DNA of 64,000 nucleotides from Bilabrum cf. latius. Taxonomy: Eukaryota. The stretch lies in assembly GCA_965178125.1 (NCBI GenBank), contig OZ237761.1:496001-560000 (forward strand), read 5' to 3'. The notes under the pieces were generated by a model. That model saw nothing but the letters and a program-made list of their open reading frames with translations. It was not told the DNA's origin and did no database searches. Shown piece after piece: positions 20,659 to 64,000 of this stretch. The translations under genes were made by a program, and so were the position numbers. Positions within the stretch are counted from its first letter, which is position 1. Each line of letters opens with the position of its first letter.

Positions 20659-20822
20659 TGCTTTGGTCTTTAAGTATCACGGGAAGGTGTTGATTGGATT
20701 TTATCTTCATTTTCCTTTTTTGATTGGCGGTCGGTTACAACCGCTTTTCGGGGTCGTCGAAACCGAGAGTGCGCATCACAGCCACGCCCGTGGACAACTC
20801 TGTCCATCCGTTGGTTCGCGAC

Positions 20823-24407: not shown

Positions 24408-25174
24408 AACTACTGACTCACCAAGGTCTTGTGGCCGACATCAACCCCGCAGGCAAGCACACAACTTAGTGCGCACACCTGACCACCCTCGCAGCACCTC
24501 GAAATCGCAACCCATCGCCCCTGCAACATTTGATGCCACAAGACCATATGCGTACCGTTAAAGCTGCCTCGGGCCAGAGCAGACGAAACGCGATCACAAC
24601 CTCACCCAGCCAGCTGGTTCATCGAGCTTTTTTCTGAACGATGGGTCACGCACATCAACCATAAAGTCCTTATTTGTTGTGTCTGCGAAACATAAAGGGG
24701 AATGACAGGCTAATTCGCACGGGCTAGAGGACCGCGACAATCGCTTGTTTGCATGCATTCGCTTGCATACCTGGCCATTCCCTCGAATTAATCCCATGGC
24801 ACTTGTGTTCTCCATTACCTAAGGCAGGAATGTCCATAACCCTTGATCAAGCGTTGCTGTTCCAGACTGCTAGGATGCGGATCAGATGCGGATCCGACAG
24901 GCAGCATCATGCAAACATGATATTCGATTTAAGCAAAGTGCAAAGTTTGTTTGTATCTCTAGGCATTGCCAAGTCTACCATTCCTGATCAAGGTGGCTTA
25001 CGAGGACTTCAAGTGTTCTTCTCAGGCTTGCTTAGTTGCTTGGTGGGTGCTTCTGCTTCAAGTTGCAGCTGTAACTTTGTCTCGGTTGAAGAGTGACGGG
25101 CTGAGCTTGCCCCATCCCTTCTCTCCCAGAATTCCTCTCATTTCTGAGCCAATGCAAGAGCTAGCCGATACCAC

Positions 25175-27996: not shown

Positions 27997-30900
27997 ATGT
28001 AGAAAAGCTTGTTCTCATTTTTTAACAAGCCATCAAAGCCTAGCGACGGTGGCAGCGCACCAAGAGCAACACCTTAGAAGGCTGTGAAAGTAAGCTGATG
28101 GTGCTAAATTCAAACTGAGATTCAGCCGCTGACATTGCTGCTCGAGCTTGCGCACGCTGAATCTGTCTCTGTATTCCCTCACAGAGTGGTATCAATGAAA
28201 ATCAAGCGAAGAAAGCCCCAGGAGGTACCCCGTCGGCAGCCAGCAAAGCTGCGCCGAAACTCGAATCTGGGAAGGCAGGCGAGTTAGGAGCGTCTGTTGT
28301 CGGCCGTAGGGTTCGAATCTGGTGGCCCAAGATGAAGCAATTTTATGCAGCTCTGATCAAAAAGTTTGATGGGGCTCGAGACGAGCACTACATCCGGTAC
28401 GATGACGGCGAGGAGGAGTGGATCACACTTGCGCAAGAGAGAGTGAGCAGGGTTTTGGGAATCGCTGCAGTGCTGTTATGTTCTTGTCCACGCAGAAACC
28501 TCCGAGATATTCCCGCCTTTTATTCCGCAGTTCGAGCTCGAGGACACGACGGCTGCTACAACGCCCGCAAAAGGGGCGGCATCTCCAGGCCCATCCTCCA
28601 TGTCTATCCCAGGAGGATCCGCGGGAGGATCTGCGGAGCAGAAGCGAAAATCTAGCGGCAAAGCGACATCATCGGCTCGATCACCATCATCAGGCGCCGC
28701 TTAGGCCCCCATGGAAACCGGAGAGGGCGAGGGCGAGGGCGAGGGCGAGGACGCTGCCCTCCAGGGCATCACCTTCGACGAGGAGACGGACGAGGACGAA
28801 GATGAAGATGAAAAGGTCGGGGCCGCTGCGAGGCGATCCCGACTGAAGAAGAAGAGCGCTTCGAAGGCGAAGGGAAGCATCGGCAAGAAGAGGTCGCGCG
28901 CAGCCGTGCAGGACAGCGATGACGACGAGTACAGCGCCGGGGAGGACGAGGAGGAAGAGGACGACGACGACGAGGAATTCGAAGCCAACGTGGGAGCAGC
29001 ATCCGAGGACGATGGGGATGCAGGGCCTGGAAGCGAAGATGAAGATGAATACGACGACATGGTGGTGGCTCCCCCGAAGAAGAAGAAGGCGAGGAAAACG
29101 CCCGCCAAGGCCCGGTCGCCCCGAACACCAGCAAGCTCGGCATCGTCCGCTGTCGCTACGGCATCGGCGCGCAAGTCGTCTGCGTATGGGGACAGGGACT
29201 ATGCGGTGGACCCCGTGGATTCTCTGGCAGGCGCTGTCGGTTGGGAGAGGCGATCGGGGGGCGGGGTGCTCCACGGAGCTTCCGGGGCCATGGCGAGTGC
29301 AGGCGGCCCGTCTGCCTCTGCCTCCTCGTCCTCCTTTGTCGCTTCTGGCGGCAGCAGCGGGTCCTGGTCGACACCCGTGGCGGTCCCCGACACGCCGACG
29401 AAGCGCCCCCTGCCCGTCGGTTTCACCGAGAAGGAGATGGACAAGATGGTGCTGGGGCTGGGCCAGCACCACCACAACCGGTACAGCTTCCTGTGGCAGC
29501 CCAACAGGAAGGACGGCCACCGTCGGGCCCCTTCCCACCCCGACTACGACCCCAACACCCTGTGCGTCCCACCTGATTTCCTCAAGAGCCAGACCCCCGC
29601 CATGCGCCAGTGGTGGGAGATCAAGAGCAGGTACATGGACACCGTGCTCTGCTTCAAGGTGGGCAAGTTCTACGAGTGCTTCCACACGGACGCAGACGTC
29701 CTCGTCAAAGAGTGCGACTGCATCTACATGAAGGGGCTCAAGGCGCACGCGGGCTTCCCCGAGATCGCCTACGGGCGTATGTCGGAGGCTCTTGTGGCCC
29801 GTGGCTACAAGGTGGCTCGCGTGGAGCAGACGGAGACGCCTGCCCAGCTGGCCCAGCGGAAGAAGGAGACGCCAAGGGGCCAGAAGAAGCCGCAGGTAGT
29901 GCGCAGGGAGCTGTGCGGCCTGAAGTCAAAGGGGACGAGGGTCACTGGCCCGATGGACGTGGTGGAAGACGGGCCGGGGGGCGGGTCTTCGCCAGGTGCG
30001 ACGGCTGCGCTGGCTCGCGCTCGGGAAGCGGCCGGGGCCGCGCTTCCCTCTGATGCTGCCGTGCTTCTCGGCATCTTCGAGACCCCTCTGCAGCAAGCGG
30101 GAGAGGCCGGGGCGGCGACCCAGGGAACAAGCGCCCGGAGCCGTGGCCCGAACGACCCGGACGTGCGGATCGGCGCGTGCATGGTAGACGCCGCTTCCGG
30201 CCAGGTGTGGCTCTCGGAGTTCCTGGACAACTCGCAGCGCACGCGGTTGCGCACGCTAGCGGCGAGGGCGCAGGTGGTTGAGCTGCTCACCTGCGATGGC
30301 AACCTGACCGAACCTTCGGCGAGGTTCCTCCGTTTCGACTGCGCGACGGCCGTCCGCACGCAGCTCAAGCCCGGCAACCAGTTCTGGGGAGGGGCCAAGG
30401 CGGCCAAAGAGCTTGAAACCGCACCTTACTTCGCGGAGGCAGCGGGGGCTGCTGCGGGAGGAGCAGACGGCGATTCTGCCGCTTCCGGTTCTTGGCCCGC
30501 AGTGCTGCGATCCTGCGCTGATCTGGCCAAGGCGGCCGGTTACACGCCCAGCCAGAGCGCCGGTTCTGCCGACGCCGTGTGTGCCGATGTGGCACCGGGG
30601 GCGGGCGCGTTCGCTGCGTTCGCCGGCACGCTGGGTTACCTTCGCAGGTGCCTGATTGACCACTCCGTGCTGTCCATGGGGCGAGTCAGTGCCTACATGC
30701 ACGAGGCAGAGGTCAGCGCGGGCGGCGCAGCGTCCGGCGCAGGCGCGTCGCCCTCGGCTGCCGCTTCTTCTTCCTCCTCCGAGGCTGCTAGCGGAGATGC
30801 CGACGCTGTGTCGGCCGCAGCTACCGCGGCGTCCTTGCGACTAGACCCGCCCGGCCCCCGCATGGTGATGGACGGCAGCACGCTGGTGAACCTGGAGGTG

Positions 30901-38822: not shown

Positions 38823-41800
38823 ATGAGCATGATACGAATTCCCACAAGCGGTCGCCTTGAAGTGTCTGGCAAGGTCTTGGCTGACAGCGAGCCTAATCCC
38901 GACGACGTAGACAGCTCTTATGACGGTGCTTCAACCGATACAGCCTACGATATAATTGTAGATCATTCCATTAAAGCAACTGATCCAGATGGACGCGCAG
39001 ACTTAGTGAGGAATTCGGGAATACTTCTGTTGATCGTGCTTTGTGCCGTTGTGGCGCTGACAACGGCACTCTTTGAGCAATTGAGCACACTTACCAATCA
39101 TATACCGCAGTTTGTTAGACTCTCCGTCAGTGAATCGGCATCAAAAAGATCATGGAGAGTCTACCGGTCGTCAAATGCCATCCGGGCCTTGCATGATGCG
39201 GTGAGATTTCGTGACAGACGCTGCGACCAAACGAACCCCCTCCGTCGTCGCTACATCGAAACCGGCAGCGGGTAAGCCTTACGCTGTATCGCAGCTTTGT
39301 GATGGTCATTCCGATGCCATGGCTGCATTGGAGCCGCCTCCACTTGTCCGGCGGAAGGCAGACATTCCGAAAAGCTCAACCTCACCCGGTTCGACCGTGG
39401 CACCGGCCAAATTTGGGGCATTTGCACGAGATTGCGATGGATACTTCGAAGATCTGTCGCATTTTGACTTTGTTGCGACGTCGGGTCGATTTCTTGACTT
39501 CATTGAAGGGCCGTTTGCGTGCCGACCACTGCAGCCAAGTGTTGGGCACTGTCCTCCTGATTTACAAGTTCGATACGGTGGGTATCATCAACATGTTGCC
39601 GGTTATCGCCTGCAAGTAAAATCGAGCTCGCTTGGATGCGGCTGGTACGTCTGGCGGGGCAAAGTTGACAGCGAGAATCTCCTCGCTTTCGCGAAGCAGG
39701 ACCCGTTGGTGTTTGCGCACTGTTCCACTGACCTATCTCAAAGGCTGCCCAATGCTGAAGGTGTGCGACGACAGGCGGACATAGCAGCCGCGGGATCGTC
39801 GATTGCAGAGGTAGTGAATCGGCTGCTCGCTTGCATGGTGCCTCCGTACCCCGCGGCTATGCTGGCTTTCCTCCGCCTTGGAGAGGCCATCGAAGCGCAC
39901 TAGCTCAGCGAATAGGCTGCCATTGAGACCGATCCAGCGGGTAGTTTAACGTCATCGCGCGATGGCCTGGAATGGGTGGCAGTGCCTGACCAGGGCTTCC
40001 CTAAGCCTACCATTGGGCATAGTGCTGGGCTTGCACCATCAGCACTCGGTGGTGGGCCAGCACCGAGATCGTGCTGGCACAACCGAGAAGTTATCGAACT
40101 GGCTCGCAGTTTGCTGGACGGTAGGCCTGACAGTACCGATAGTTCTTCTTCTTGGGCCAGGCAGTATGCGGCCGATATGGGCGGCTTGCCCTCTGCTGCA
40201 GTGCTTTCCATGGCAATGGCCGATCGTAAGGACAACAGCGCCGAATCAGCGGGGAATACGTGGCGAAGCAGGCACGATTCCAATGCTGATGAAAATAGTT
40301 ACCTTGGCGACGGCCTCTTATCTCCTATGCAAGCCTCCCTCGACGAGGACCGGCGACCGGCACCGAAGCAGCTGCATGCCGCCATGCGCGCAACTTCTGA
40401 CGACATGCTTCCGGGGTCTCCGAAGCAGCCACATCCGCACATTGCTGGCAGTTCAGCCCACAGCAAGGAGAGGGCGAATTCCGGAGATGCCAAGGTCGTT
40501 GAGTCTGACTCAGGGTACTCGTCAGCGAGGAGCCAGGTGGTCGACGGGTCCATGGGCTTCATCAGCCAGGAGAGCCGCCGCAGCTTTGGGTAGCGGGGAG
40601 CACAGGCTCCACGGGCTACAAACAGTGGCACGGGATGGGGTACGAACGGGGAGCATGCAGATGGTAAGGATGGGAAAGGAGCAGTCGAGGACCAGCCCAT
40701 TGCAACTAGCAGAGACAAAGCGGTCTGCGCCCCTGCCTCAAGTGTGACCTCTTCGAAATCCAGGAAGTCGACCAACTCATCAAACGCATCCGGACGGACT
40801 GTCGGAACAGCCCACCTGTCTGCAGCTAGCCGCGGCACACGTCGAGGCACGCGTGGGGACGACGCAGAGGGGACACCGAATGCTGGCACAGTTGGAGAGT
40901 AGCAGGCCTCTCGCCAGCTAGAAGCCAGGGTGATGCCGAATGCTGGCACAGTTGGAGAGTAGCAGGCATCTCGCCAGCTTGAAGCCAGGGTGATGCCGGA
41001 ACCACCCCGCCCCGCACAGATAGAAGCGCTGTAGCAAGAGCTCAGCGCACCCCAAAGCCCTTGGAAAAATCATGGTCTGTCTGCTGCCAATAAGCACAAT
41101 GAGGCCCCGTCCACAGTTGTGGCCTCAACAGCGACCGATACTCACGCTGGGGATGCAGGAGGGCGCGGGCCCAGTCGGTCTTCGTCAGCGCATTCGAACC
41201 ATGTAGTCGCATCACAGCGAGGGCATCCAGTCCAGAGTGCCCCTCCCATCATTGAGACGGAGGGGGATAGCAGTGCATCTCCTGGCACAACGAAGAGTCC
41301 CACTGCTGCGCCAGAGAGCAGCAGCTACAACAGCACTGGCCCGCTGATGCGACTTGGATCTCAGCAGTCCATCAGCGCTATTTTTGGCGCAATAGGGGCT
41401 TCACGAACATCAAGGCAAGCCTCGGTACGATCAGGAATGAACCAGACAGCTAAGATGCAAGCCAAGCAGGATGCCCCTCCACAGACCGCTCCAGTGCAGA
41501 GCTCTATGCGCAGAGCAGCTTCCAATGCATCTACCGTTGGAGTCCGGCGTGGCAGCATATCAGATTTGGTTGCTCACGATGTTCCAGAATCAGACTACTC
41601 GTCCACAGTTGCCTCGGAGAGCGAAATTGCTTCCCCACAGCTGGGTGCAGCAGCCCACGAGAACCCACCGCCCAGGCGGCGATCGTCGTTGAAGCTGCCT
41701 CGGCTGAAGTCTATGCAGGACTGGGACGTTGGGCTGGAACCACTGTCAGAGCAGACAGCCGGAGAGATAGGGGAGGAAGAAGGTCCGTCCAGCGTGAGAT

Positions 41801-44800
41801 CAGCGTCGTTGAGCGGCACGAATTAGACTCCAAGGAGCCCAGCTTGCCATTCCAGACAGCGGTCCAGGTCAGACAACAAGCCTCCCCGTGACGTATCCCA
41901 AGTATCTGCAGCCTCTACCCTTCCTAACAGACACTCGTCGTTGTACGATGAGATCAACCTTAAGGAAGCACCGACTCGCACGGATGGCGTGCAGAATGCA
42001 CGGAGACAGCCGACATCGCGATGGTCGCAAAGCTCGGGTGGAATGCCAGGCCCCATCGCCAGACGGGATGTGAGGACCAAATTACCCCCCTTCCAGGTAC
42101 AATCTGGCAGTGAAGCCGGAAATCCACGCACTCGTGCCCGTCCTGGCGCCCGTGCTCGTCAGGACGCTAGCTCGGATGGGTCCGCTACTACCGCTGTTGA
42201 ATCAACACGGTCTAGCTGGGAGGTTGCTAGCACCGATCAATTGCGAGCCCCTCCCAGAAGCAATCTGAAAAATGATAAAGGTGCTGCAATACCAAAGACA
42301 ACCTTGGATTCGCACACACGATCAAAGAGGGGGTGGGCTGCGCTTGGCGAGACCAGTCTTGGGGAGCTGTCTGGCCTTGCATCCGAGTCATCTTCGGATT
42401 CATCGGCTTCATAGAGCTCTGACCTAAATGGCGAACGTGGTACAGACTCCAGGTTAAAGGTCGGGGGCAGGTCGACAGAAGCATCTGCCGTGCGCGATAC
42501 CCTGGGAGATGCGGCTGCACAGAAATCCTCTTCAGAGTCGTCCTTCGAATCGTCGTCGTCAGACACATCTGACAGCGACGCGGGAGCCACGGAGCACCCT
42601 TCGATCCGGTCTCATTAGTCTCTGCGGCTTATTCTGAATCGTTCTTCCAAGAAGTCGCGAAATTAGAAGGATCGATCACGGCCGCGCAGAGCCAGCGTTG
42701 AGCGGCAGCTGCAAAAGACACCAACTCACAGTTCCCTGAGATCTGCGTCCATTACTCGAGATGAAGAATCCACCTCTAGGAAAATCCAAAGAGATGCGAA
42801 GGAGGTGCTTAAAGCAACCCAGGGCGTTGTGCTGCTGGTCGGAAATTCTCGAAAGGGGTACGAGGTCAAGCGCCCAGATGACGATGTCCCCGATGAGCTC
42901 AAGCGTTAGGTGAAGTCTTCTTCGGTACCGTCTACCACTGGAAGCCTATCGATGGGCACCGAGTTATCGGATACCTCTGACCGTGGTAGCAACAGGCGAC
43001 GCAGGGGCAAGCAGGCCTCGGCTGGCAGCCTGTCGCTGGATGGTGAGTCTTCGGATACCTCTGACCGTGGTAACAACAGGCGACGCAGGGGCAAGCAGGC
43101 CTCGGCTGGCAGCCTGTCGCTGGATGGTGAGTCTTCGGATACCTCTGACCGTGGTAGCAACAGGCGACGCAGGGGCAAGCAGGCCTCGGCTGGCAGCCTG
43201 TCGCTGGATGGTGAGTCGTCAAGCAGTGGTTCTTCACACGAGCAGGTACCGCAGCATCGCTCGAATTCTGCTCAGGTTCAGAATACAAGTGCCGTGGCGG
43301 TAGATCGCATACGGTATTCTGCAGGTGGACCAACCCCATCAGACTAGCCTCGAAGATCCGATCTTATTGAGCAAAGCTTAGTAGAGCCTACGAGCTCGTC
43401 TAGCAGCGCGCTGTCAGACCTGAGCTCATTCGAATCGGTCGAAGAGGTGCCTGAGACTCCACCTCCAAGGTCGCCTCGAACGGCGGCGAGGATGCTGCAC
43501 GAGGGCCAGCAGCACTTCGAGTTCCTCCGAGCCGTTGCTCTCCTGAAAGAAGGACAGGCCCTCCGGAAACTTGCGGATTCCTGGGTCACACCGCCTTCAG
43601 CACGGGTCCTGTGGTTCCTGCCGGGCACGGGGCTGCCGAGGGGCAGGAAAAGCAAGAGAGCTCAGGTGGACCTGCGCAGTAAGCTAATACCGCCCCTGCG
43701 AGAGCGATGTCGGGAGCTGGGCATCAAGCCGGGCTGGTTTGGCGATCAAGCGCTCGAGGTGTGGCCGTACTCTGCACTCTGCTACGGCACCGAAAAGAAG
43801 GACCGAGCTGACGCTGAGGGCATCCGAGTCGTGCGCCTTGCCTAGGTGATCGAGGCTCGGAGGGGCGTAAGCGCGGACAGAGCGGCTGTACGGTTGACCA
43901 CGGCTGTGCGATAGGTACCCGCCCATGAGTGCTTTCATATCGTGCTAACGGGTGGCAAAACCCTGAATTTTCAGGCAACTGACCTGGTGTCTCGCAACGA
44001 GATCGTTGATGCTATTCAACGCGTGCTCGCTGCAATCACCGGCAACCCAAGACTACATCGTTCGCTGATCACAGTAGGTACTGCGGCTAGTCACCTCAAC
44101 CGCATCGAGTACCTGGACTGGGAGCAGCAGCGGGGGATGTACGACGAGTATCAGTACAAAGTACAGAAGTAGGAGCGCCGTGAGCGGAGGCGGGAACGGA
44201 TTGCCAGGCGCGCCGCGAGCTCTGGGCGGGATCAGCACCGCGACAATACGAGGAGTAGCACCCCGGCGAGACCTGCCCACGATAGGTTGGGAAGTGCACC
44301 TCGGGATGAGAGGCACGGGTCAGATGAGCTGGAGCATGTTCTGGAAGGCACCACACGCAGCTCAAGCTCCAGTACACGGTCATCATCGAGATCTCACCCT
44401 TCAGCGAGACATTCTTTGCCGTTGCAAACTCGTGTTATGCAAGGTCCGGCAACGCAGCGCCGACCGGAGCCCGCTTTTGAGCATGCGCCACCGGTGATAG
44501 GGCCGTCAATCGGATCCGATACGACCGCATCTGGCAGCTTGCTGTCCCATGAGTCTCTCAGCGCCTTGCTACGACAGGGATCGGCTCGCTAGTAGCAGTC
44601 AAGCGAATTCGGTCGACAAGAAGTTAAGGCGAGAACTACGCCTGGGAATGGCAGAGTAGCACATGGAGAAGACGTCAGAGATGATACTGCGCGAGAGACC
44701 ATAGTGACAAGCTCCACTCCATCCAGTGCTCTCTTGGATCCAAGTGCCACAAGTAGGAGCACCGATTCAGATGTGCACGACAGTGCTGACTCTGGGGGCA

Positions 44801-47772
44801 GCGGTAGTGCGGGCTCACAGAGCGACGCAGGAAGGAGTTCTGATCCCTCCGGGGACACTAGGGAGGGTCCATCTCTCTAGGAGCAAACGCATGCGAGTGC
44901 AAAGATGGATTTCTCGAAGCAGGTCGGGGACGGCTCACCGGAAGATTGTCATGGATCGTACCGTGTGTTCCATACAGCAGAATGTCCGGCGCAGGCTGGT
45001 TAGGGTACGCTTGCGGCCGCACAAACTAGTCAGAACGCACCTGTTCCGGATGACACTGCTCCGAGCTCGCCTGCAGCGCATGATCACGGAACGCAGCTGA
45101 CTACAGTTGTAACACGCGAACGCCGAGCTAGCTTTTCGTCGCAGCGAGGTCTTGAAAGGGTCCTTAGCGAGGCAAAGAATCGCAAGGCCAGGTCTAGTCT
45201 CATGTCAATCGGGAACTCCTGGAGGTCTGCAAGGTCAAGGGTGCCATTTGCAGCGAAGGCTAACGAGCACAGCTCTGACAGCAGCCACGTGGGTACACAC
45301 AACGCTTCAGTTGGGTCTGCTACTCCAAGGCAAGAGGCCCATTCCGTCGCGGCGACCGAAGCTGTTGGTGAGCTCCACGGATCGGTCGCAGCACCAAGTG
45401 TGGCAGAGACAGCTGCCAATACGCCTAGGTCTCGACTCATCTATATGCAGCCAGTGGGTGCTGAGCATCCGTACGAGTCCTCTAAATCCTCATTAGGAGC
45501 AGAGACAGGCCTTGAGGCTCATTCAGAGGAGGAGACAAGGGGAGCAGGCGATGATTCTGGCGAGCATGGTGCAGCAGGGGCGACAGTTCGAACTGACATC
45601 GAGGCAAGGCAGTCCGACGAGAAGTCCCACGGGGGGCTAGATGAGCACTACACGCCAAGTGCTCTGCAAGCAATCGGTGTGGACGCGGAGCAGCGGCGTG
45701 CTCCCGACTTGATCCTCCCCGAATCCGGCGAGGCTACCGAGCGGGTCAGCAAGAGAGAGCCTGATTAGCGAAGCAGCGGATCCGATGCGAGCAGTAGCAG
45801 TTCGGTTGAAGAGTAGAACAATGGGCAAAACAGCGATCAAAAGGCGGTTTTGCAGCCCAGCAGCTCGCCTGCCAGGCGCAACAGCAGCAGTGACAAGAGC
45901 CGCCCCTCCTGCAGCGATGCCAAAGCAGGCGACACTGTCGAGAATGAGCTGCAGCAACCTGACACGACTCCTGCCATGCGCCGATGGAGTTTCCTCGCAG
46001 AACAGGAAGAAACAGTGAGATAGCTTGCATCCGCGTCTCTCTCGTCCAGCGTTGCCTCTAGGCGGTCGACCCCGCCGCCCCCGCCACCGAGACAGCTTGC
46101 AGCTCGGCGTGGGTCCGAGCCACGCGCGCCTGATTTCCCCTCTCCAGAAGTGTCCAACTCCAACATTGTGCCGACACCGACCGCCCCAAACAGTGGCACA
46201 CAGGCTAGCGGTGGATTGCAAACCCAACAGACAGGTAGCAAACCCCTGACAGCCGGAGAGAAGAGGCGACAGAGGGCCTTGGAGAGGCGCAGGGCCATGC
46301 AAATCGACTCCGCTTCCCCGCTCGCTAGTCCTGGGTCCTCTGCGTCGCCACTTCAGTTGAAATGGCCCGGAGATCAGCATCGCGGGGACAGAGACGCGAT
46401 ACACGATCAGCGCACGGCAAGCGCAGCGAGGCGGCGGCCATCGTCAGGCAGGTCTTCGGCGGGTGAAGAGTCATCGTCAAGCGAGGGGGATTCGTCGACT
46501 GGCAGTTACCAGAGGCATGGGACAGGGCAATCTAGGCCTGTCAATGCAGCACTGGCAATGGGACGAAGGCGCAGGCGCAGATCGGGAAGCAGCCTTTCGA
46601 GCAGGAGTACTTCTACAAGCGACAGTGAGGCCGCCTCGAGCCATCTATCCAGTGCACTCGACGGTGTCAGCAGCACCACTAGCAGTCGAAAAGACGAAGG
46701 GATTATGCCCGCGCAACACTCTGGCACTTCACCAGCAAAGCGAACTGACATCGCACCAGCTCGAGAAGCCGCCGATGTGAGCCACTCTGATGTCGCGACT
46801 AGGCGTACCAGTCGGACAGCTGAGCAATCCAAGGAGAAGGAGAGCCAATCCTCTGCCGAGATACCTGTAAGAGATCTCGTGAAGTTTAGCTTGATTGCAA
46901 GCAGCGCTGACGAGTCTGTAGGCGTTGCTGCGGGAGACGAATCTGATGCCGGCAGCGAGGTTGACTCAGATGGGCACGCTCAGGTAGATGCAGAGGCTCC
47001 TCCTCGCTTGCCGCCGTCCGTGATTTCTTCCTCCTCGCCCACTCCGAGCATGGATGAATCGGTCAGGGCAGGCGTGGAATCCATGGCATCAAGGGCCCAA
47101 GAATCTCAGCTACCAGCTTCATCCGAGCAACGAGGCACACACGGTGCTGGTACGGTATCTGTCGAGCCTGCCATAGAGGCTGAGCCCGCATTGGCTGCGC
47201 AAGCCTAGCCGGAGGCCCCGGGGACGACTGTCCAAAGCGGTGCAACTCCTTTGACACCGGCCAAGGTGTCCCTTGCTCGACTTCGCTCGCCGCATGGCCA
47301 TGTGGTGGAGCAGGGTGCCCTTCGCAAGAATCGCCTGGCGCAGATCGCCAACGGAGTGCGGAGCACCATTCGGCTGTCCAAGGGAAGCAACAAAGCAAGT
47401 GAATCGCGCGCAGCTAAAGCTCGAGACTCCTCCAGAGCTGGAGGCGAAATGCCTGCGGGTCTGCCCCCTCGGTCCAAACGAGCGCCGGAAAGTGCGAGTG
47501 CCGCTGCTGGGCGAGTCAGTCTCAAGGAAGCCAAGAGGAGGCAGAAGCAAGAAGAAGCGCCTTGGGAAGACGCATCTACTGTGCTGTCTGAGACAACTGC
47601 ATCCACGCTGAGAACCACGAATCAGCCTTCCTTCAGGATAAGAGAGACTGGACCTACGTTTGGATCACTTCTCCCAAGGGGCTCGACCGCCCAAGCGCTG
47701 CTTTCCAGCAAGCTGGCCGAGGTCCGGCGCCGAGCCATGCTGAGAAGTGAGGCGGGTGATGCCGAAACGTGA
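38823..47772 (+). CDS. Giant (~2,900 aa) protein with N-terminal PX-like domain(s), a central PH-like domain and Ser-rich disorder
   Basis: Intron 39201-39294 gives SWRVYRSSNAIRALHDA|LCDGH..LEPPP (PX-like); possible intron 39006-39110. The frame is free of TAA/TGA from 39205 to 47769 and holds 23 TAGs. PH-like block ~43520-44040: LLKEGQALRK..VVRLA*VIEARRG..ECFHIVLTGGKTLNFQATDLVSRNEIVDAI. Confidence 0.8.
40876..40995 (+). repeat. 60-bp tandem duplication (2 copies) in coding sequence
   Basis: ccgaatgctggcacagttggagagtagcaggc.tctcgccagct.gaagccagggtgatg x2, encoding PNAGTVGE*QASRQLEARVM; two third-position differences. Confidence 0.9.
42967..43218 (+). repeat. 84-bp tandem repeat (3 copies) in coding sequence
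   Basis: Copies start at 42967, 43051 and 43135; each encodes SDTSDRG(S/N)NRRRRGKQASAGSLSLDGES. Confidence 0.93.
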
Positions 47773-47883
47773 GGTGGGGGCCCAGTAATGCAATGATGGC
47801 TTGGACCGTGGCATGCAGTTTAGTGCTCCGAGAGTATTCAATTTTTGCATTCTACATTGTTTGTGATCTGCATCCTTCCATTC

Positions 47884-50800
47884 TTAGTCGACACTGAAAC
47901 CGGAATTCGCGAGCCTGTCGGCCTGTTTGCCCACTGGCGGTTCTCTCGCCACCACTTTGTCCCTCACACGGCCTTTCTTGCCCGACTTAATCCAACCCTT
48001 AATTCTCTCCCGGTCACTGGCCCATTCACTCTTGTACCCCAGCCCAGCATCCGGGCCGATCGGGCTGCCTGGCGTCGTGGCCATAAGACCCGGAGTCACC
48101 ATGTTCCCTGCAGGATATCCCATCTGCAGGCCCTGCTGCATGGCTGCCGTGCGGAACTCAATGGAGCGGCGGGCTCGGAGGCCACCAGAGCTGCGAGTGT
48201 ACGGGACAGCCGCGGGCCCAGACTCTCCTCGCGGAGGAGCCTGCAGCTGCAGAGTACGCCGCATGGAGTCTGCGGAATCGCGCATGCGGCCAAAAACAAA
48301 ACGACGAAAGGCATCATCACTGCCCACAAGGTTGGCCTGTTCCAGCTTGCGCTACTCCTCGTCCTGCTGCTGCTTTGACACCACTGGTGGCTCTGCATTG
48401 ATTGTCCGATTGTATAGCTTGACAAACTCCGAGGCTGCGCCGGCGCCAACGCTGCCAGAGGCATTGACCCACGAGCTGTCGCCGGTCCCAGCACCCCGCT
48501 GGACTGGGCTACCTGGCTGCCTTGTCGACGGCTGCTGCGCAGCATATCGAGCCAGGGCCTCCGCACTCGGAGCATGTATAGTATCCGCCAGTGCACCAAG
48601 AGCAGCCCGGGTCCTCGCCCGCCTCAAGACGGTAGCATGCGCACCTTTGGCGATGTTGCGGGCATCTGCAACCTCTCCAGCACTCGAAGCGTCTTCGATG
48701 GCCTCTTGAACAGTTGATTTCCCAAGCTTGTGCGCGTTGCTCATCTCATGGTTAATGACGTCTTGTGGGGGCAGTGGCACCCTGTAAGGATCGGCAGTGT
48801 AGATGGTGAGCCCGATGGGATCTGGGGGCGGCACCTCTTCTACCTCTTTGCCCTTTGCGTAATCTTCGAATTGCCGACCAATGGCTGCGAACGTGGCATC
48901 GTCGTCAAGAAATCGGGTCCACTGTGATATGCCGTCCTTAGGAAGGAAATGCGATGGATTCGTGCTTGGCTTGCCGTGGACCATTACACGGAGAAGTCCA
49001 TCCGCGCTTCTCCTGTAATTGCCTGTCTAGAGGGCATCCGCTGCTGAAGAGAGGGGCACGACGCCTCCTTGTTCCAGAATGATGTCCGTAGGGAGCCGCT
49101 GGATCAGGTCAGCGCTGTCACGCTGGCCTTCAGCCTCTGTCGGTGCACGGTGGGACTGATACTCGTGCTGCATGACTGGTGTCCCACGTTGACGGTCGCG
49201 AGGATACACCACGATTGCGCCAGCGTCCGCGCTAGTTCGGTCTACGTCACCTTCACCACTACGACTGTGCAGCTGCTATCGAATGCCGACAGGGGGTCGC
49301 GGGCCTTCCGGGCGGCCTGCAGCTTGCACTGCCCCAGGGCTGCTCGTAGCACTTGTGTTAGTTTGTGTATCCAGCCTGGACTCTCCAGCTTCGGCCATGG
49401 ATGCAGCCATCTAGATATCTGGATCTGTTCTGTCGCTGTTGACGGCGTGTTCTAGCTACCCAAGCGACTGCTTCCCTTGGTCTATGGCTCGATCCATCTC
49501 TCCACCTACGTAGTCGTAATCGCCATCCTTAACCAAGCGAACAAAATTGGCCCTCGCGTATCGCATAAAGCCCCTGACCAGTGCGGCCCCGCGGTTCCGA
49601 GTGAGCTGCAGCGCCTCTTGGGACGCGAGCCTGGCCTTTCTGGGCACCCCATCAAGCTCGATGAACGCTCCTGCTGTCCTCTCCAAGGCCCCATCCAGAG
49701 CCGTTTGCTCCTCCATGTACGTCCTGAGGTCTTGTAAGGCAAACATGGGAGGGTTGTACGGTGACAGGTCCTTTGGTTCGCGGGGTGCGATGGGATGCTT
49801 CACGCGCTGCTCACCTGTCCCGCCATCCACCCACACTCGACCCTCGGAGCCGACCAGCCGGCGCTTCGCGGCGATCGCGCGGGCCACTCGGGCCCCTATG
49901 GTCCAAGTCTGCAGGCCGGTCAGCCAGTGCCTGATGTTGCTGGCCCTGACTGGCTTGGCCGACTTTGCCTTCACTTCCGCTTTCGCCGCCTTGGACCGCA
50001 GCACGAGAACCGCAAGCTCCTGCGCCTTGCGAGTGCGGGTTCGCACCATCCAGCGTCGAACGGCCTGCTGTATCTGCGTGGCCCCCTCACTGCGACTTGT
50101 CGGCTACTTGGACGCAATCAGCTCTCCTCTGCCATCCTCCTGCACCTCTTTGGATGCCTAGCGCAGGGCGGTCAGGTGGTCAAGGATGCGCTCGTGCAGC
50201 CGAGCCTCGGCCAGCTCCATCGCAGCGATCACGTCGTCTGCCAGGTCAGCGAGGCCAAATTTTTGCGCCGCGACTAGTTCGGCATACGTCATCTCGGACC
50301 GATCTAGCTCCTCTCCGCTTCTTGGGTCGATCGTCAGGAACTGAAACCGAGTGAGGCTGTGGGTGCTGCTGAAGGGGTTGATGAGAGGGAGTGGGATGGC
50401 CTGGGGTTTCTTCCGGCGGGCGGCGCGAATCTCGATGGTTCGCTCCTTGTCGAAGTCTGTTCGTCTGTACCGCATGCGCACAGCTATAACGGCTCGACGG
50501 GTGCGGCTGCTGCCAGCGCCTTCTGGTATGCGTACGGGCGCGACAGCCAAGGTGACAGGGTCCGAGAACTTGCCAGCACCCAGCTTATCTTCTGCGCTGA
50601 AACCGGCTGCCGCCTCAATGGCAGACGCGATTCGCTTCTGCTTCTCGGTCATGCTTTCGCCCGCTGCTGTGGTGTCGATCCCGATGCCTAGCCCGTGCGC
50701 CGACGGCCGCATTGGCCCTGGTCCGGGCTGCCTAAGTCCCAGGTCCTGCATGAGCTGAACAGCACCCATGACCAGCTTGTGGCTGGCAACATTGGACACA

Positions 50801-52185
50801 ATGGAGTCGAAGCTATGCCGCTGCAGGATTGATACGCCTGTTCGGGCATTGTGCGTCTCTACGACGAAGAACCTCATCTTTGCTAACCTGAGAAGGGCGG
50901 CCGATTGCTGCTTGGCGAGCTCCCGCCTAGCCTTGTATGCCGCTGCGTCCGCGTCTGACATCTCTGCAGGAGCAGCAAGGCTTGCGATTCCACGGGGTCC
51001 CTCGGGCGCCTCGGTCCGCACCTTGCTGGCCGTGCCTCCGAACGCGCTGGTGCGACGGCCCCCACCCACCACGCTGTTTCGCCTGCGCCCCTTTGCCTTG
51101 CCCTTGCCTCCTGCCCCTGGGCGGGCTTCAGCCTTGGATGAGGCTTGATTCTGTGTGCTAGGAAGCTCCCCCCTATGCTCGGCTGCAGCCATGGCCGCGG
51201 CCTCTTGCAAGGTCATTGCGCCCATCTACCCGACAGCTCCCATGCTCATACGGCGGGCCGTGACACTAGCCCGCCGGGCTGCCAATCTGGAGCGCTTGCG
51301 GGTTTGCTGCTAGTAGAACCCTTTGATTATTTGCTCCATCGTGCGTCTATAGACTGCGACGTCTGATTGTTCTTGTAGGGACGACAGGTCGGCCCTCAAT
51401 GTCACCAGCGTCATGTCACCTGCGTCGGATTTCGACAGGCGGCAAGCCACGAACTTGAGCTCCTACGAGTTCACTCGAAATGACGGCTGCTTTGAAAGCA
51501 TGGTTTCGCGGCGGCTGAGCTTTCTAGAGAGATGCGAAGACTTGCCTCTTCGCAGTGGTTCCTTGCTGCTTGGCCTTGATTTGGACTCTTGAGAATGCAG
51601 GCCACTATCTTGGGATGCCTCGGTGGCTCGGCTCTCGGGTCGGCCACGGCGCTTCTACGAAAGCACGGAACCTGTACCCTGAAACGATTGAGCTGGATGC
51701 AATCGCTTTGCAGCCTGGCTGCTTGTCCCTGTAGATGAAAAGCGTGAGGCCTGAGAACTGTGTTGCTGGAGCTCCTGCTCGCTGGCGGTCTGGTCCACCG
51801 GGCGGGAGGCCTCAAGGCACGCTGATCGAACCCTCTGCAAGTAAAACTTTGCCGCGCGCTTGAGTACTGTCGAGTGTTCATCCTCAAGTTTTGTCGCGTC
51901 GATAGGCCTCCGAATTACCGAGCCGTCGACGAAGTCCTCTTCCTCCGCCCAGAAAGCCGTGCGAAGCTCGTGCTATGCAAAGAGGCGAACCGCTCGCTCA
52001 GATGTATCCGTCCGGCCATGTAATTGACTGACACTTTTTGACTTTTTGGCAGTGTGCGGCCCAGAACTAGCTAGCTTGCGAGCTACTGCAGCTTGTCGAA
52101 GCTTCTTCGATAGCACGGAGGGAGGCACTTGCAGGTCCGAGACAGCCGATTCAATGGTTTCGAGCATTTGCTGCGTCGTACTCAT
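47884..52185 (-). CDS. Uncharacterised 1,433-aa protein with one IQ-like motif
   Basis: Seven same-frame ORF pieces joined by 12 TAGs (51973, 51655, 51463, 51310, 51226, 50158, 50104, 49456, 49411, 49276, 49027, 48352). ATQIQQAVRRWMVR at ~50040-50080. Ends TAA at 47884. Confidence 0.78.
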
Positions 52186-52565
52186 GGCAAATGAATGAGC
52201 GGTTAGTGCACTTGTTGATGTTCCAGCATCCCTAGTTCGGATGACACGGCCTATTTGTGTGCCTGCAGTAGCCGTTGCAATGTGCTTGACTTGCGTATGT
52301 CGATCGTGCGATTCTGGCTTGCACTATACGCCGACACTCTTGTGATCTGTGCCTCCACATGGTACCCAACTTTCGCATGACTGGCATGCACCCATATCAA
52401 TATTACGTAGAGATCTACGCTATGATTTAAGACCCAAGGAGCGGAGCTCGAATTGTGGTTCAGCACGCAACAAAAAGTCAATGTCGGATCAGGTCGTCCA
52501 CAGCCCAACACTAACCCCGGGCGGGCATTGTCCAATAAGCTTCGGTTTGAAGCAAATTGTGCCTA

Positions 52566-55500
52566 ATGTCAGCTGCTAGAAGCAGCGCAAGACGCCCCCG
52601 AACAACCGAGGCGGGTAGAAAATTGCTTGCCGCGGTAGCAGCCGGCGACGCCAGCACGGTCCAGGCAGCCATTGATGATCATGGTCTTAATGTAGTCTTG
52701 CAGTTAGAGGATGATGTAAGTTGATAGTGTCTTGTTGCAGCAGCGGTTTTGCAGGGCTCGCTAATCCCTACCTTGTTGATAGCACCCAGAGCGTATTGCG
52801 CAGGAGGGCAAGCTTGCGACACACGTCGCAGCTTTGAATGGAAGACTAGACATTCTTCAAATGTTACTCCCAGAGAGCGGATTGGAAGGCGGCAATGGGC
52901 AGGCACCGGATGCAGGATCGCAGCTGCTCCGCCCCGGACCGGTTGGGTGGACAGCATTTCACTTCGCTGCCCACGGAGGACACTCGGATTGTATTGAGTT
53001 GATGGCAGACCGGGCAGGTTCATCCCCAGCATTGGTATGTAGAGACTAGCGCGGGCGCAGCGCTCTGGACATCGCATGCAGGCTGGGCAATGTCCGCAGC
53101 TGTCACGCCATCTGGCGAGCGGCATCGCAGCTGGAGGAAGCAGCGCGAGGCGTTCGATCTTCTGCCGGTGGCGATCAGCCTGATAGCGTGCCGCATCAAG
53201 CGCTAGCTGGTTCCATGGTACATGGGGACGGCCGGGCCAGCTAGCCCGCCTCGGGATCACACTCATCACACAGGTCCATCTCTGCCCAGCAAGCCGCTTC
53301 GATGACTTTAGATGACATTATCGCATCGAAGCACCCGCCCATCCCGCCACGCCTGCCCCCACCCTCCCGTGGCGCAACGGCCGCTGCCCCGGCCGCCGCC
53401 GCTGCAGGCAAGTCCGAGCCCGCGAGCCACGCCGACAGGGAACAGCGGGCCGCCAGGCATGCGTGGGAGGCACAACACGCGCGCCTGGTGCTGAGCCAGG
53501 ATCCAAGCGGCCTCACGCCGGTGCACCACAGCTGCCTGGCGGCCCAGCTGGACGCTCTGCGGTGGAGCGTGGGAGCAGCCTGCCTGCCCCTAGGGGCAAT
53601 GGCCAAGGGAGGGGCCACTCCGCTCATGCTGCTGTGTCAGGCACCTTCACCGAGCAAGCAATCAGTCTCTCTGCGGTCCCCCGGAGTCCTCCGATGGATG
53701 CTAAGCCCGGCAGGCGGGGGGGTGCCCCGCGGCAACACGGGAAGACAGGAGGGTGTGGGCGCAGTCGACCAGCAGGGAGCGACGCCGCTGCACATGGCGT
53801 GCGCGTCGGCTGTGAGGGCACTCACTGCACTCGCGCAAGCCTCATCGAAATCACCGACTGCAAGGGCTGCAGAGACTGCGGCCGCGAGTGCATCCGCGCT
53901 GGTGCTACTGTTGCTCCAGGCTGGCGCTGACCCGAACAAGACGGACACTCGCGGCAACACACCCAGGTCCTTAGCGGATGCAGGGCCCAAGCTGCCACCA
54001 TCCGCACGACTGAGGCTGGGAGACGGGGCGGATGGGGCAGAGGACGTGCTGGCCGCGATCTTGGGTCTTGGCCGGCCACGAGCTTCCGATGGGCCAACGG
54101 AGAGTGGCGCTGGCGGAGCCGCGGCTGAGGGTGGGACGCCAGCGCTGCTTGACGACGGCAGCAGCCGTGACGGCGCATCTACCATTGGTTCGGGGGGTGG
54201 CGCAAGCCGGCACAGGTCGGGTGGTGCGGGTTATGGTGGTGCGGTGGGCGTGCCTGGGCCAGCTGAGCTCATGAGGCAGGCTGCGATGGCGCCAGGCCCG
54301 CCCCTGGCACCGCAGCTGAGGAGAGAGGACGGGGATGCCGCAACGGGCGGAGATGGATCGGGTAATCCCGCATCGTCCACATCGTTCGCTGTCTCGCCCG
54401 GCACGATCGAGCTGCAGTGGGAGCCGCCTGCCCCACTGGGACCAGCGTGTCCTCGTGTGGCGGGCTACGAGATGCAGTGGAGGACCGTAGGCAGGGTCCT
54501 TCGGTCCGCGGGTAGCAGAGCATCGGCACCCCAGTTCGCCCTGCGCCCCGAGCGGCCGTCCGAATGGACCACCGGGGGTGCCCCTCTTGGCGCAGCCGGC
54601 GCTGCTTGGGCCATGGCTGCTGCCGAGGACGGCGCGAGGTCCCGGAGCGGGTCGCAGAGCCCTGGGTCTGGCATGGGCGCGCAGGAGGATGAGGACAGCA
54701 TGCACGCAGCCGTGTCTCCCGAGCAGCTGGCAGCGTGCATGGCTAAGCTGGGGCCTCTCGCGAACGGGCAGGCGTACCAGATCAGGCTGCGTGCGGTAGA
54801 CGAGAAAGGCGGTCGCGGCGAGTGGACGGCGCACGAGGCGCCTCCGCAGATGACGGTGCTGGCAGGCGGGAGTGGTGGCACGTCCTACTCGGGAATGCCA
54901 GGCCAGGCAGCGGGAGGCGCGCAGCAGCAGCAGCAGCACCAGCAGGAGACCAGCTCTCGAAAATCCGGGCTTGTGCTTCTATGCGCGGAGGGCGCCGAGC
55001 CCGCGGGCACGGAGGCCACGGCAAGGCTCGTGCAGGGGGGAGCTGAGAGTGCGGGCAGCATGCACGTGGCTGGCCTCTGGCCCCTCGCAGCAGCTGCTGC
55101 TGCTGATGGGGACTCCACGACGCTCCGATCGGTTTGCGATGCGTCGCAACGATTTGCTTGGGCTCTGCCTAGCCGTCGGGCAGGCGAGCCGTTCGTACAG
55201 GCCGGAGGCTCCCTCACGCCGACTCGCTGCTGGCTGGCACTGCCTGCACCGGGGCACCTGCCCGCGCTTGCATCCTTGGCGAGGCCTTCCTGGCTCTCGC
55301 GGGCGTTTCGGGGGCTGCCTCTCGGCGAAGGCTCGAGGCGATCGCCGCTGCACGCCGCGGCAAGCGCTGGGCGCTGGGTCGAGTGCACGACCCTCGCTGC
55401 TTCGCTGCTGCCGAGCGGCACCGGGACAGGTTCTGATAGCGGGGTGGACTCTGACACCAGTGGCATTCCAACCACGGCTGAGGCCTCGCAGGCTGCGGTG

Positions 55501-60125: not shown

Positions 60126-63100
60126 TCACGAATAGTCCAATTCAATCGCCCCGCGCAGGCTGGCCCCGCCGTGACCCCACCCAGGGCACTGGATGCTTAT
60201 CCGGTTTGGCACACCCACACGAGCGGGCAGCTGCTGGAAGGTCGCGGCCTTGCCATTCACAACTACTGACCTGACCTGGTCCGGTTCACCGTCACGGAGC
60301 AAGACCACGATACTCGGGCACTAACCCGCTGGGACAGGTGCCCAGTCGATGTTGACGCACGCAGCACCAGCACTTGCCTCGCTTCGCAAACCGCTCTGTG
60401 CGCGCCCGTCACCAGTGCAGCTACCCAACTTCCTGGACACGTTCAGCAGCGGGCTTGAGAAAGCCCACTGGTCCTAATCATCAAGCCTAGCCGAGATCTA
60501 GATCTACCCCGCTTCAAAATGAGCACCGACAATTGCGGGAAGCCGCAGCTGCGCGGCCGCGTGCGACCACATGTTGTGCAGCTGCCAGTCGGCAACACCA
60601 CCCTGCCCCGCTGCTGGCACGCCCGGGCGAATGTAGTTATCAGAGCCCGTCCACGTTCCTGCCAGAATATCAGGGTACACCAGTGCGTGGTTCGCGAACG
60701 AGTTTTTCTTCACTTCGTCCCAAGCCGTGTCCGACAGACCCATCTTCCCGAGGGCCTCGACGTACGGCATGATGCCGCAGGGCCATGTGTTCGCGTAGTG
60801 CCCTTGGCCACCCCACGCAACGTAAGACTGATTCGTGAATTGCGCACCGATTGGGGAAGGGTCCCGCAGCCCAGATTGAATGGACCCCAGCACGTTCTCA
60901 ACCAGTGTTGCAGCACCAGCGGGTGCCTGCTATGGCACACCGGCCAGCAGGGCCCACGCGTTGGGTTCAAGCCACACGGCAGAGTCGTTGCTGCGGACCC
61001 CCGGTGGGCACGAGCCTGCGCTGCAACCTATCCATCCACTGCCCGGGCTGATCCAAGCTCGTCGGTAGTACAGCGGAGTTCCGTCAGCAGCCCGGTTCAC
61101 GGCCGCACGATTGAGCGAGATCACCAGCTCGCTGGCAAGACGATCCATGGCAGCCGCCCTGGCGCAGAGTGCCAGAGACGGGTCTGCATCGCATGTAGTC
61201 GACGTAGTCACCTCGACCGCGAGCCGAAATGCGTCTGCGGCGGCAGGCAGCATGTAAGCAGCCATGGCAGAATTCATCACTGTCTCCCCCTCAGTCTTGA
61301 GCTCGTCGCACTGGTCTGTGGTCAGGCCAATCGAGTGGCAAATTCCGTCGTTATGGTCTGCGAGAACAAGATGGAGACGTGAAAAGTACAAACGACACCG
61401 AATGATAGACTGCTAAAAGCGCCGCGCAAGCAAGTATCATTCGTGGCAGGCAGTAGAGCGGCATCATCACAGCCTTGCTTACCCATATGCAACATCTTGA
61501 GAAGGCCATGCTACCCTTTCCCAATGATAGTGTCGAGGCGCTGAAATAGCCACCAGAGAGCCTCGTGCAGCGGTACCCTGGCGGATGGCCCAGGGGCGCC
61601 AGCTGGTCCGGGCTCACCATGCTGGCTCACGTTGCGAGACAAGTTCTTGAACAGCACACCAACATCTCTCGTAGAAAGCACGTACCGCGCAGCAGCACCG
61701 AGCGTCCAGATCTCTAGGTCACTGGGATGCATCTACCGGCCGAGCGGGCTCGTGTAGTTCTCGCTGTACACCTGCCCGAACGTCTGCACGCCCCAGGGCA
61801 TGGTCCAGGCCGCATCGGCTTGCTGGATGGAAAACCGCACCATTTCAATCGTCGAGCCGCGACCGAGCGCCGACTCACTCACACCATAGCCAGAAGACTG
61901 TGCCCGATGCTCGTTCTGGCCAGCCTCATGGTGGAAGTTGTACACGAGCGGGGCGACGTGGCCGAGCGGGTCACGGATGGCACCTTGGAAGCCTGCGTGA
62001 TACTGGTACACCCCGGCCTGGTTAATGAGGAAGCCCTGCCAGAACGAGTCGTACGACATCGCGCCTCGGGTGTAACCTGCCTGCCATACCTGCTCTCGCT
62101 CTGCCCACGCGGCTGCGTCAGGGTCTCGCTTCGCGTCGGGCTGAAACCGGATACCGGTCGAAGCGAACTTGCGCGAGCTGGCCGTGAGCCACAGCGAAGC
62201 CCCACCCGGGGATGAGTGCGCTTGGAGCAGCGGTGCGATGAGGCCCACGGCTCCGCTAGGTGACTCTGGGACGCCTGGTGGCACGTACCCGCTAGCTAAA
62301 TGCAGCTGAGCTGCAAGGCCAGAGCCGATCATGCCATCTCCTGCATCGCCGTCCAAGGCATACGATGCAAGCGGTGCCTGGATGGCGAGCGATGTTGATG
62401 GTCCCGCAGCTGCACCGTCTGTGCCATCAAGAGGCTCTACAACCCTGGGCTGGTCAGGGCGCGACGAGTCCGGAAACAGAAACGTTCCGTTGGCAGACAC
62501 GGAGCAACCCCCGAAATCTGAAGTGGCCTGTGCTGTGGTACTAGCGCCATGCTTCGCGCCGGGTGCGAGCAGGACCAGAAACTGCGGCCTGGGGTGTTTG
62601 TCGTGCAGCGAGGGGGTTGGAAATTGTGACGGCCACGCATCCAAGCTTGATCCTGCCGCTGCTTCGGTCTGTGAGTGCGACAACGGCACAGCAGACGGCC
62701 CCGCCGCTACTGAATGGTCGTCGCTCATCGATGGCGCGGTTATCTGGTCGAAGAGCAGCAGCGCTAACGAGTCGGCAGGGCACGGGGCAGAGCTGCCTAC
62801 CAAGGCAGGGGTTACCGCGTATCCTCCAGGCAACCCGCCCTCAGTAGCCTGCAGCAGACCTCCGGGTCCTCGCCAAAACGTGCTTCTCACGCACGAGGCC
62901 GAGACGTTGTGGCCCCACGTTCGGCTGGCCTCGGTGTTCCAGCCCGTGGGAAGCAGCTCCTGAGCCAGCGTGGACCAGACCTCCGTATAAGCAGGAGGAT
63001 TGCTTGAAGTAGCCATCAATGCGGCGGAGACTGACACATTCACCTGGGACACGACGAAAGGAACGTCTCCAAATGGAGCTTGCACGACGTGCGAAATTGA

Positions 63101-63574
63101 AGCCGTACCTGCGCCTGCCGCTGTTGTCTTGCTTGCCTGTCCGACCCCAAACCGAATATTTAAATCTTTGCATTGACCGCCATCTGCAGTGTGGACTGGA
63201 CAACGGGATGAGGCTGCGATTCGGTCGCCTGCAGACACCCACCCCGCACCGCCCCGGAACTGCTTGAGAGACGCATCGAAGCCGTTCATGAGCTTGGGTC
63301 CACCCTCATCCTAGCGCAATGTCACAAGACCATCGGCTGCGCACAAGGCGACTAACCTATCGTTGCCAAACTGGTGTAACAAGGACCCGCTCTACGACTC
63401 GTTCGAAGCCCCGAGATAGGATACCGCAGGAAGAATGCCATCAGGTGTCGACCCCCAGCTGCCCCACATGTTACTCCCAGGACTATTATGTGGGCTATCT
63501 GGTTGCCCAAGAGATGGAACCAGCTGGGTCAATGCCAGTACGCATGCCGATATAATGAACCTGCAATAGTGCAA
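60126..63574 (-). CDS. Secreted GH94-like (alpha/alpha)6-barrel glycoside hydrolase/phosphorylase
   Basis: Signal peptide MHYCRFIISACVLALTQLVPSLG. Intron 61482-61358 gives G*HGLLKMLHMDHNDGI, spaced like the GH94 GxHGLxxxxxxDWND motif; also RDPLGH, SDLEIW, GETVMNS, WLEPNAWALLAG. Nine TAGs (63392, 63311, 61733, 61511, 60930, 60504, 60498, 60474, 60321); TGA at 60126. Confidence 0.72.
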
Positions 63575-64000
63575 CTGCCACCATGCAAACGATACGAAAT
63601 ATCATGCTACTCGACTTGCGGATTTAGAACAATGAGGAAAAGCTAGGATAACTATAATGGTTTGACTGACATGCTGTGGGCTCTTAAAGAAGCGAAATTT
63701 GCTCACAAAGATCCGTAAAATCGTGATCTTTTTGAAACGTGTCGTTTTCTCAAAATACGAATTTGGTCGTTCATCGTGCAGCTAGCGTGGTCCACACTGT
63801 TAGATTGTCGCTTCTATTGCGCCAGGCAGTCCATATTGTGCGACAAACACATCATTATACCTAATAGGATTGCTTAGACTGCCAGAAAGTGGTTTGAGAT
63901 TGCCGATTAGCGCTTGGGTCTGCACGTGGTATCGCGAAGGGAGCTATACTAGTGCTCACGTGGAGCCTTTTGTGATTCATAGCAGTCCAGTGTCTTTTAA

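Follow-up and report, generated by a model that had tools for sequence, protein, structure and literature searches.

Nuclear genetic codes in which UAG has parted from UAA are rare: the passages of PMC5304391, PMC11687900 and PMC10553269 that treat such codes describe them in a fornicate, a rhizarian and a few ciliates. Such codes put to the test the proposal that wobble-reading tRNAs and the release factor eRF1 tie the two codons together mechanistically. Iotanema spirale (Fornicata) is described as reading UAG as Gln and stopping at UAA and UGA, with UAA the dominant stop and a T32G change in the GTS motif of eRF1 (Panek et al. 2017, PMC5304391), and the same paper describes Rhizaria sp. exLh, in which UAG is read as Leu, UAA is a stop and eRF1 has an alanine at the Leu69 position. 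In phyllopharyngean ciliates UAG alone was reported to be reassigned, to Gln or Leu, and CUA suppressor tRNAs were found (2024, PMC11687900); UAA is given as the dominant or preferred stop in the taxa of both papers. In Oligohymenophorea sp. PL0344, UAA and UAG are reported to encode different amino acids (PMC10553269), and translation table 15 of NCBI is cited as reading TAG as Gln (PMC9523058). Here we analyzed a stretch of 64,000 nucleotides deposited under the name Bilabrum cf. latius (contig OZ237761.1, positions 496,001 to 560,000; hereafter the window), and in particular the TAA at 47884-47886 that closes a gene we call g47. A preliminary description of the window had proposed that UAG is read as an amino acid there while UAA still ends genes. 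We confirmed this decoupling of UAA and UAG at the level of sequence, and the nuclear code very probably uses UAG as an ordinary sense codon and terminates at UAA and UGA, UGA being the usual stop and UAA a minority one.

UAG within genes and UAA at their ends

When TAG was read as a residue, the window resolved into long frames with eukaryotic domains. We counted 81 in-frame TAGs among the 17,763 codons of 18 trimmed genes (90 in 18,546 codons before trimming). Their share of 0.46% of codons exceeds that of TTA or TAT, and a share of this size argues for efficient, dedicated decoding of UAG rather than leaky near-cognate reading. TAG was commonest in weakly constrained, low-complexity stretches, and some TAGs stand upstream of conserved sequence. 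The best-conserved TAG site in the window, residue 184 (11996-11998, plus strand) of the UDP-sugar pyrophosphorylase (USP) frame at 11447-13258, is followed by 419 residues sharing 99% identity with the database protein P0003; one TAG falls inside the kinase domain of a TKL kinase and one MSH6 TAG within domain III; a TAG site in GHL15 lies in or ahead of the conserved part; and the TAG at residue 1379 of g47 precedes a C-terminus common to the database protein P0129 and Cafeteria-like proteins. Since conserved sequence stands downstream in each of these genes, TAG must be read through.

None of the sequencing runs listed as carrying window sequence is recorded as RNA. Contigs of one of them, run X5, match the window but omit three GT..AG segments (39006-39110, 39200-39293 and 52716-52803), which suggests that they behave as spliced RNA. 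Because of these omissions, the DNA of the window appears to be nuclear and transcribed, with few short introns. Over 20 kb the X5 sequence differs from the window by a single letter (T>C), and the contig of this spliced run over 43188-47851 has no differing letters; since it keeps the letters of the window, the TAGs do not appear to be edited out of the RNA.

We then turn to the ends of genes. The preliminary description had counted sixteen genes ending at TGA and two at TAA. Among the 19 long frames, 16 indeed end at TGA and two at TAA (47884-47886 and 23688-23690), and one runs off the window, but two of the TGA ends (at 61322 and in frame 17589-18524) are doubtful, so that after trimming 14 of the 16 trusted gene ends are TGA and 2 of the 16 are TAA. 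An additional TGA-ended gene, which is acidic, lies at 25175-26552. TGA ends coincided with the ends of homologues or transcripts for USP, compared with P0003, and for g39, the gene convergent with g47, compared with an X5 contig and with the alignment of a contig from run X7; internal TGA admits no independent count, since TGA itself delimits the frames. A pattern of UGA or UAA as sense, as in codes of the Condylostoma and Blastocrithidia types, was not seen in the window.

The claim that TAA is never internal held without exception: none occurs in frame in 18,546 codons, compared with 41 and 71 in the two other frames. Had TAA shared the meaning of TAG, the A/G ratios of CAR, GAR, AAR and TTR codons would predict 14-27 in-frame copies, and the Poisson probability of finding none is 6e-7 to 2e-12. 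When TGA was taken as the only stop, frames grew by just 4-42 codons of 5' leader holding 1-3 TAA each; because this test reveals no hidden coding extension, the zero count is not an artefact of how frames were defined. Among the other TAA-ended frames of at least 70 codons, none was gene-like besides frames antisense to the TPT transporter and MSH6 genes and a 74-codon frame at 28476-28700, which formed an exception in the gene-likeness scoring.

The TAA at 47884-47886 (minus strand; TTA on the plus strand) closes a 1,534-codon frame (47884-52488, minus strand) with 14 in-frame TAGs. Gene g47 itself (47884-52395, minus strand) contains 13 of these codons, belongs to no Pfam family and has its probable start at 52393-52395, with an N-terminus, MGACQSC, that resembles what we take to be an N-terminal acylation motif. 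A search of 1.84 billion representatives matched its protein seven times, apparently always in Cafeteria-like organisms, and a metagenome scan with the re-aligned g47 family alignment gave 598 pattern matches and no confirmed relative. As the preliminary description had noted, this stop lies 111 bp (spacer 47773-47883) from the end of the convergent gene, the TGA of g39 at 47770-47772 (plus strand), and read-through would overlap that gene: 72 extra codons would be added before the next TGA, antisense into g39. P0129 (100 aa) aligns to the final 107 residues of g47, to which it is 42% identical, and ends ...ESGFSVD at the same residue as g47 ...NSGFSVD, after which g47 has TAA. In three distant full-length homologues (1,107-1,513 aa) the protein continues for 9-13 residues past the last shared motif, and in g47 for 31. 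The DNA of close relatives gives a boundary at nearly the same place. The X7 contig (6,448 bases, ~90% identical) aligns at 46899-47793 and again at 47878-51651, and between these blocks, inside the spacer, it has 78 unlike letters replacing 84 of the window; a contig of a second ~90%-identical relative, from run X8, aligns from 47879. Similarity to X7 and X8 stops 5-6 nt past the g47 TAA, and similarity to X7 21 nt past the g39 TGA, beyond which the spliced X5 contig of g39 continues to 47851.

The second TAA (23688-23690, minus strand) closes a 250-codon ankyrin-like gene at 23688-24440. It had been described as falling near the end of a paralogue, and in our protein alignment it shares a column with the stops of two paralogues, both TGA, at 14786 and 17589, the former (14786-14788, minus strand) closing the paralogue at 14786-17233. 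The sequence directly past the TAA becomes A+T-rich, and read-through would extend the frame by 169 codons, running antisense into the gene next to it. The codon usage of the ankyrin-like frame is gene-like (0.113 per codon) and TAG is absent from it; upstream exons probably exist, because no start Met is obvious. Altogether, the C-terminus of P0129, the alignment ends of X7 and X8, the ends of the paralogues and the absence of in-frame TAA agree, and UAA thus appears to remain a stop from which UAG has been decoupled.

Several observations weigh against this reading. The window holds only two TAA ends, both supported by sequence comparison, and none of the listed X5 and X6 contigs lies over 47852-48107, the region of the 3' end of g47 RNA. 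The comparison with X7 and X8 is one of alignment extent, and the end of P0129 is known at the protein level. Furthermore, three genes have in-frame TAGs in their last 15 codons, four in all, compared with 0.97 expected (permutation P = 0.017 by TAGs and 0.06 by genes). These are at 7504-7506 in the BPI gene (8 codons before TGA), at 14795-14797 in an ankyrin gene (3 codons before), and at 23524-23526 and 23530-23532 near the 3' end of the kinase gene (14 and 12 codons before TGA). The excess may reflect residual stop function of UAG in some contexts; lax C-terminal tails could also produce it. The preliminary description had regarded its support as limited by having two TAA ends. The number of such ends is still two, and the reading now rests on more than them.

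Alternative readings and a possible mechanism

The alternative that survives best, though we consider it unlikely, is that the meaning of UAG depends on context, as in Condylostoma and karyorelicts, with UAG being sense inside genes and a stop near some 3' ends. Under this alternative eRF1 need not reject UAG outright, because UAG would still terminate near those ends, and the four TAGs found in the last 15 codons, where 0.97 were expected, would be accounted for. However, this statistic is marginal, no gene of the window needs a TAG stop, and TAG favours poorly constrained, low-complexity stretches, which are often C-terminal tails. Moreover, in the part of PMC11687900 concerned with them, known codes of this type are said to deplete, not enrich, such codons before the true stop.

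It is very improbable that UAA and UAG are both sense codons and UGA the sole stop. TAA would then be rare through GC-richness and the two TAA ends would be read through; consistent with this, TAA is the scarcest of the three stop triplets in the window (378 copies on both strands, versus 900 of TAG and 1,561 of TGA), and just two genes end with it. However, this alternative predicts 14-27 in-frame TAAs where there are none, and read-through that runs for 72 and 169 codons antisense into neighbouring genes. Against it, too, are the similarity of relatives, which ends 5-6 nt past the TAA at 47884, the end of P0129 at that very residue, and the ends of the paralogues where the TAA at 23688 stands. 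In-frame UAA as sense, which marks the UAR-type reassignments of ciliates, hexamitins and ulvophytes, was not observed. Equally improbable, finally, is the proposal that the two TAAs are not real ends, an unseen intron removing them or both genes being pseudogenes: short GT..AG introns do occur in the window, the 23688 frame is without an obvious start Met and one ankyrin paralogue looks degenerate, but X7 aligns at ~90% identity without a break over 47878-51651, the homology of P0129 with the final 107 residues of g47 extends to the very last one, and the 23688 frame combines gene-like codon usage (0.113 per codon) with a lack of TAG.

If UAG is sense and UAA a stop, as we prefer, a dedicated tRNA with anticodon CUA would read UAG alone. 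A tRNA with anticodon UUA should not exist, because UUA would also read UAA by wobble. On the side of termination, eRF1 would still accept UAA and UGA, but its recognition of a G in third position of the stop codon would be lost or weakened. These steps follow the reasoning given in the discussions of such codes in PMC5304391 and PMC11687900. Changes in the eRF1 N-domain would be expected at the motifs GTS, NIKS and YxCxxxF, which PMC5304391 names, and at positions 32 and 69 (human numbering). A tRNA scan of the window found none, an Rfam search of the window gave no matches, and the gene for eRF1 lies outside the window.

The amino acid at UAG

The preliminary description had taken UAG to be read by a tRNA-Gln. 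The identity of the amino acid could not be established, since the evidence from individual sites is split between Gln and Glu; in our estimate Gln has about an even chance, Glu is a serious contender at somewhat less than that, and another or an ambiguous meaning is improbable. Rough likelihoods for Gln and Glu flip with the assumed substitution model.

Several sites favour Glu. In the USP column at the residue 184 TAG, 94 of 120 homologues have E, three have Q and one has L, and a sister USP protein that is 99% identical has E at this TAG. At residue 393 of g47 (TAG at 51310-51312, minus strand), a 92%-identical sister fragment has E. In the JGI metagenome contig L002, a TAG takes the place of an E found in the window and the sister; among 120 homologues this column holds G in 82, E in 23 and Q in none. 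A kinase TAG falls opposite E in MLK1, although two other kinases have P and I there.

Other sites favour Gln. Among close relatives there are five correspondences of TAG to Q, including residue 795 of g47 (50104-50106, minus strand), which is Q in the sister contig, and residue 233 of g39 (39901-39903, plus strand), which is Q in an 84%-identical relative; the frame of this relative ends at the next TAG of the window, 39913-39915. Conversely, frames of relatives end at positions where g47 has CAG (residues 716 and 1330) and AAG (residue 987), and by our own arithmetic the probability that CAG, CAG and AAG all lie one step from TAG by chance is ~0.004. A TAG common to L002 and a second JGI contig, L001, is Q in the window, the column holding S in 91, Q in six and E in no homologues, and residue 55 of g47 is Q in both of two distant homologues. 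TAG counts per gene also followed Gln content (Poisson fit, log-likelihood -41.7) better than Glu content (-48.1), a fit that is confounded by gene constraint. Residue 777 of g47 is L in a close relative, the sole L among the close-relative correspondences.

Three further comparisons did not discriminate between the residues. A classifier based on neighbouring residues had no power: L, E, R and Q came within 1.1 log units of one another, and held-out Gln sets ranked first in 12 of 30 trials. In PDB alignments at the TAG sites of MSH6, the kinase and GHL15, the columns were variable. A GAG in one ankyrin paralogue against TAG in another, the sole difference in a stretch of ~95 identical nt, was uninformative about the meaning of UAG, one copy being frameshifted.

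We tentatively entertain, as the less probable outcome, that UAG means Glu, or ambiguously Glu and Gln, with UAA and UGA as stops, and that this code is fixed in a clade of Cafeteria-related flagellates whose GC-rich genomes terminate mainly at UGA rather than UAA. To our knowledge, a nuclear code in which UAG alone means Glu is in no table or paper. Should UAG prove to be Glu, it would be a new code variant, and a Glu tRNA could then capture UAG without dragging UAA along.

Relatives, host lineage and known codes

We found the use of TAG as sense in sister fragments at 92-99% identity and in relatives at 84-87%. The g47 gene also aligns throughout in runs X7 and X8, at ~90% DNA identity. Contigs L001 and L002, whose USP is 81-82% identical, carry one and three in-frame TAGs respectively, no in-frame TAA and a TGA stop. 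In contig L003 (59% identical, 70.6% G+C), frames of 1,008-1,373 codons with third-position G+C above 0.9 all end at TGA and contain no in-frame TAG, and thus give no sign of TAG as sense. To judge from these sequences, sense UAG is a trait of a clade. Within it, TAG sites seemingly turn over fast, three of four comparable TAG sites differing between g47 and the sister contig, and L001 (1-1588) and L002 (1033-2620), two contigs from separate samples, are identical over 1,588 bases but for one, which changes a Tyr codon to TAG within USP. Standard-code gene callers cut the genes of such a clade into fragments: the database entries P0123, P0131 and P0132 are fragments of one gene on one 2,970-base contig.

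The nearest named relative of the USP protein is from Cafeteria roenbergensis (57% identity), and one cluster among the database matches of the g47 family includes C. roenbergensis proteins, which together point to kinship with this bicosoecid. These best matches, rather than a phylogeny, indicate that the host is probably a GC-rich (55-67% G+C across the window), intron-poor relative of Cafeteria (Bicosoecida, stramenopiles) of heterotrophic-flagellate type. An exact look-up of 10 window frames in the protein collection found none of them present, and a protein atlas was uninformative about taxonomy.

Domains in the frames of the window include BPI/LBP, PhyH, a ricin-type lectin, UDP-sugar pyrophosphorylase, GHL15 and ankyrin repeats, as well as a TPT transporter, a TKL kinase, enkurin, MSH6 and RCC1. 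The main frame of the TKL kinase gene (21484-23568) is separated by an intron from an upstream exon (20724-21218, plus strand), whose frame ends ...IIGKGNFG, the glycine loop of the kinase. The last exon of g39 (39295-47772, plus strand) contains 23 in-frame TAGs and lies behind the introns at 39006-39110 and 39200-39293. It encodes tandem peptide repeats at 40870-41020 and 42900-43200 (plus strand), namely two copies of a 20-residue unit, with a TAG in each, and three copies of a Ser/Arg-rich unit of ~28 residues. A search for short relatives with the 2,855-aa g39 protein gave one match, low-complexity matches having probably swamped the sparse search words. On the minus strand, the ankyrin frame at 17589-18524 has four TAGs in 312 codons, matches Pfam only weakly and differs by a 1-nt indel from its paralogue at 14786-17233; it looks like a decaying copy. 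Two overlapping minus-strand frames, 60126-61436 and 61322-63601, contain 10 TAGs together and matched neither a Pfam family nor a PDB entry. They probably belong to a single gene that an intron divides, and because of the overlap the TGA at 61322 probably marks the edge of an exon and not a true gene end.

Behind gene ends, the pentamer TGCAT occurs in nine of 18 3' flanks (150 nt past the gene end), compared with ~0.2 copies per 150 nt across the window. One copy, at 47846-47850, follows g39, and the spliced X5 contig of that gene ends directly behind it, at 47851; TGCAT may be a signal for 3'-end processing. A TGTTTG motif behind stops, like that of Blastocystis, was not general among the gene ends.

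A search of the literature, whose coverage was incomplete, turned up no report of nuclear UAG being reassigned in bicosoecids or in other stramenopiles. If our reading is correct, the window represents an independent stramenopile case of UAG/UAA decoupling and the first such case with UAA as a minority stop, which would weaken the view that the release of UAG requires UAA as a fixed, preferred terminator.

Among the described codes, that of Iotanema resembles the one proposed here in reassigning UAG only and keeping UAA as a terminator, and the mechanism would be the same, a tRNA with anticodon CUA together with an eRF1 changed in its N-domain. In contrast to Iotanema, a metamonad with UAA as its dominant stop, the host of the window is apparently a stramenopile with UGA at 14 of 16 ends, and Gln is not established. 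Rhizaria sp. exLh likewise decouples UAG from UAA outside the ciliates, but its Leu does not fit the window, where L occupies one of 120 positions in the USP column and appears once among the close-relative correspondences. In the phyllopharyngean ciliates, too, UAG alone is reassigned, whereas the host of the window is GC-rich and prefers UGA, with UAA a minority stop. Oligohymenophorea sp. PL0344 also gives UAA and UAG different meanings, but UAA is sense in the ciliate and a stop here; UAG in PL0344 reportedly encodes Glu, an assignment that would match if Glu were the meaning in the window. NCBI table 15 has the same TAA and TGA stops with TAG as sense and suits this code solely under the Gln reading; for the Glu reading we know of no translation table. 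With frequent in-frame UAG, no in-frame UAA and UAA at two supported gene ends, a small sample, the window presents three features of UAG-only codes that keep UAA as a stop. The code is thus of a known kind, the reassignment of UAG alone, in a new lineage and with UGA as the main stop.

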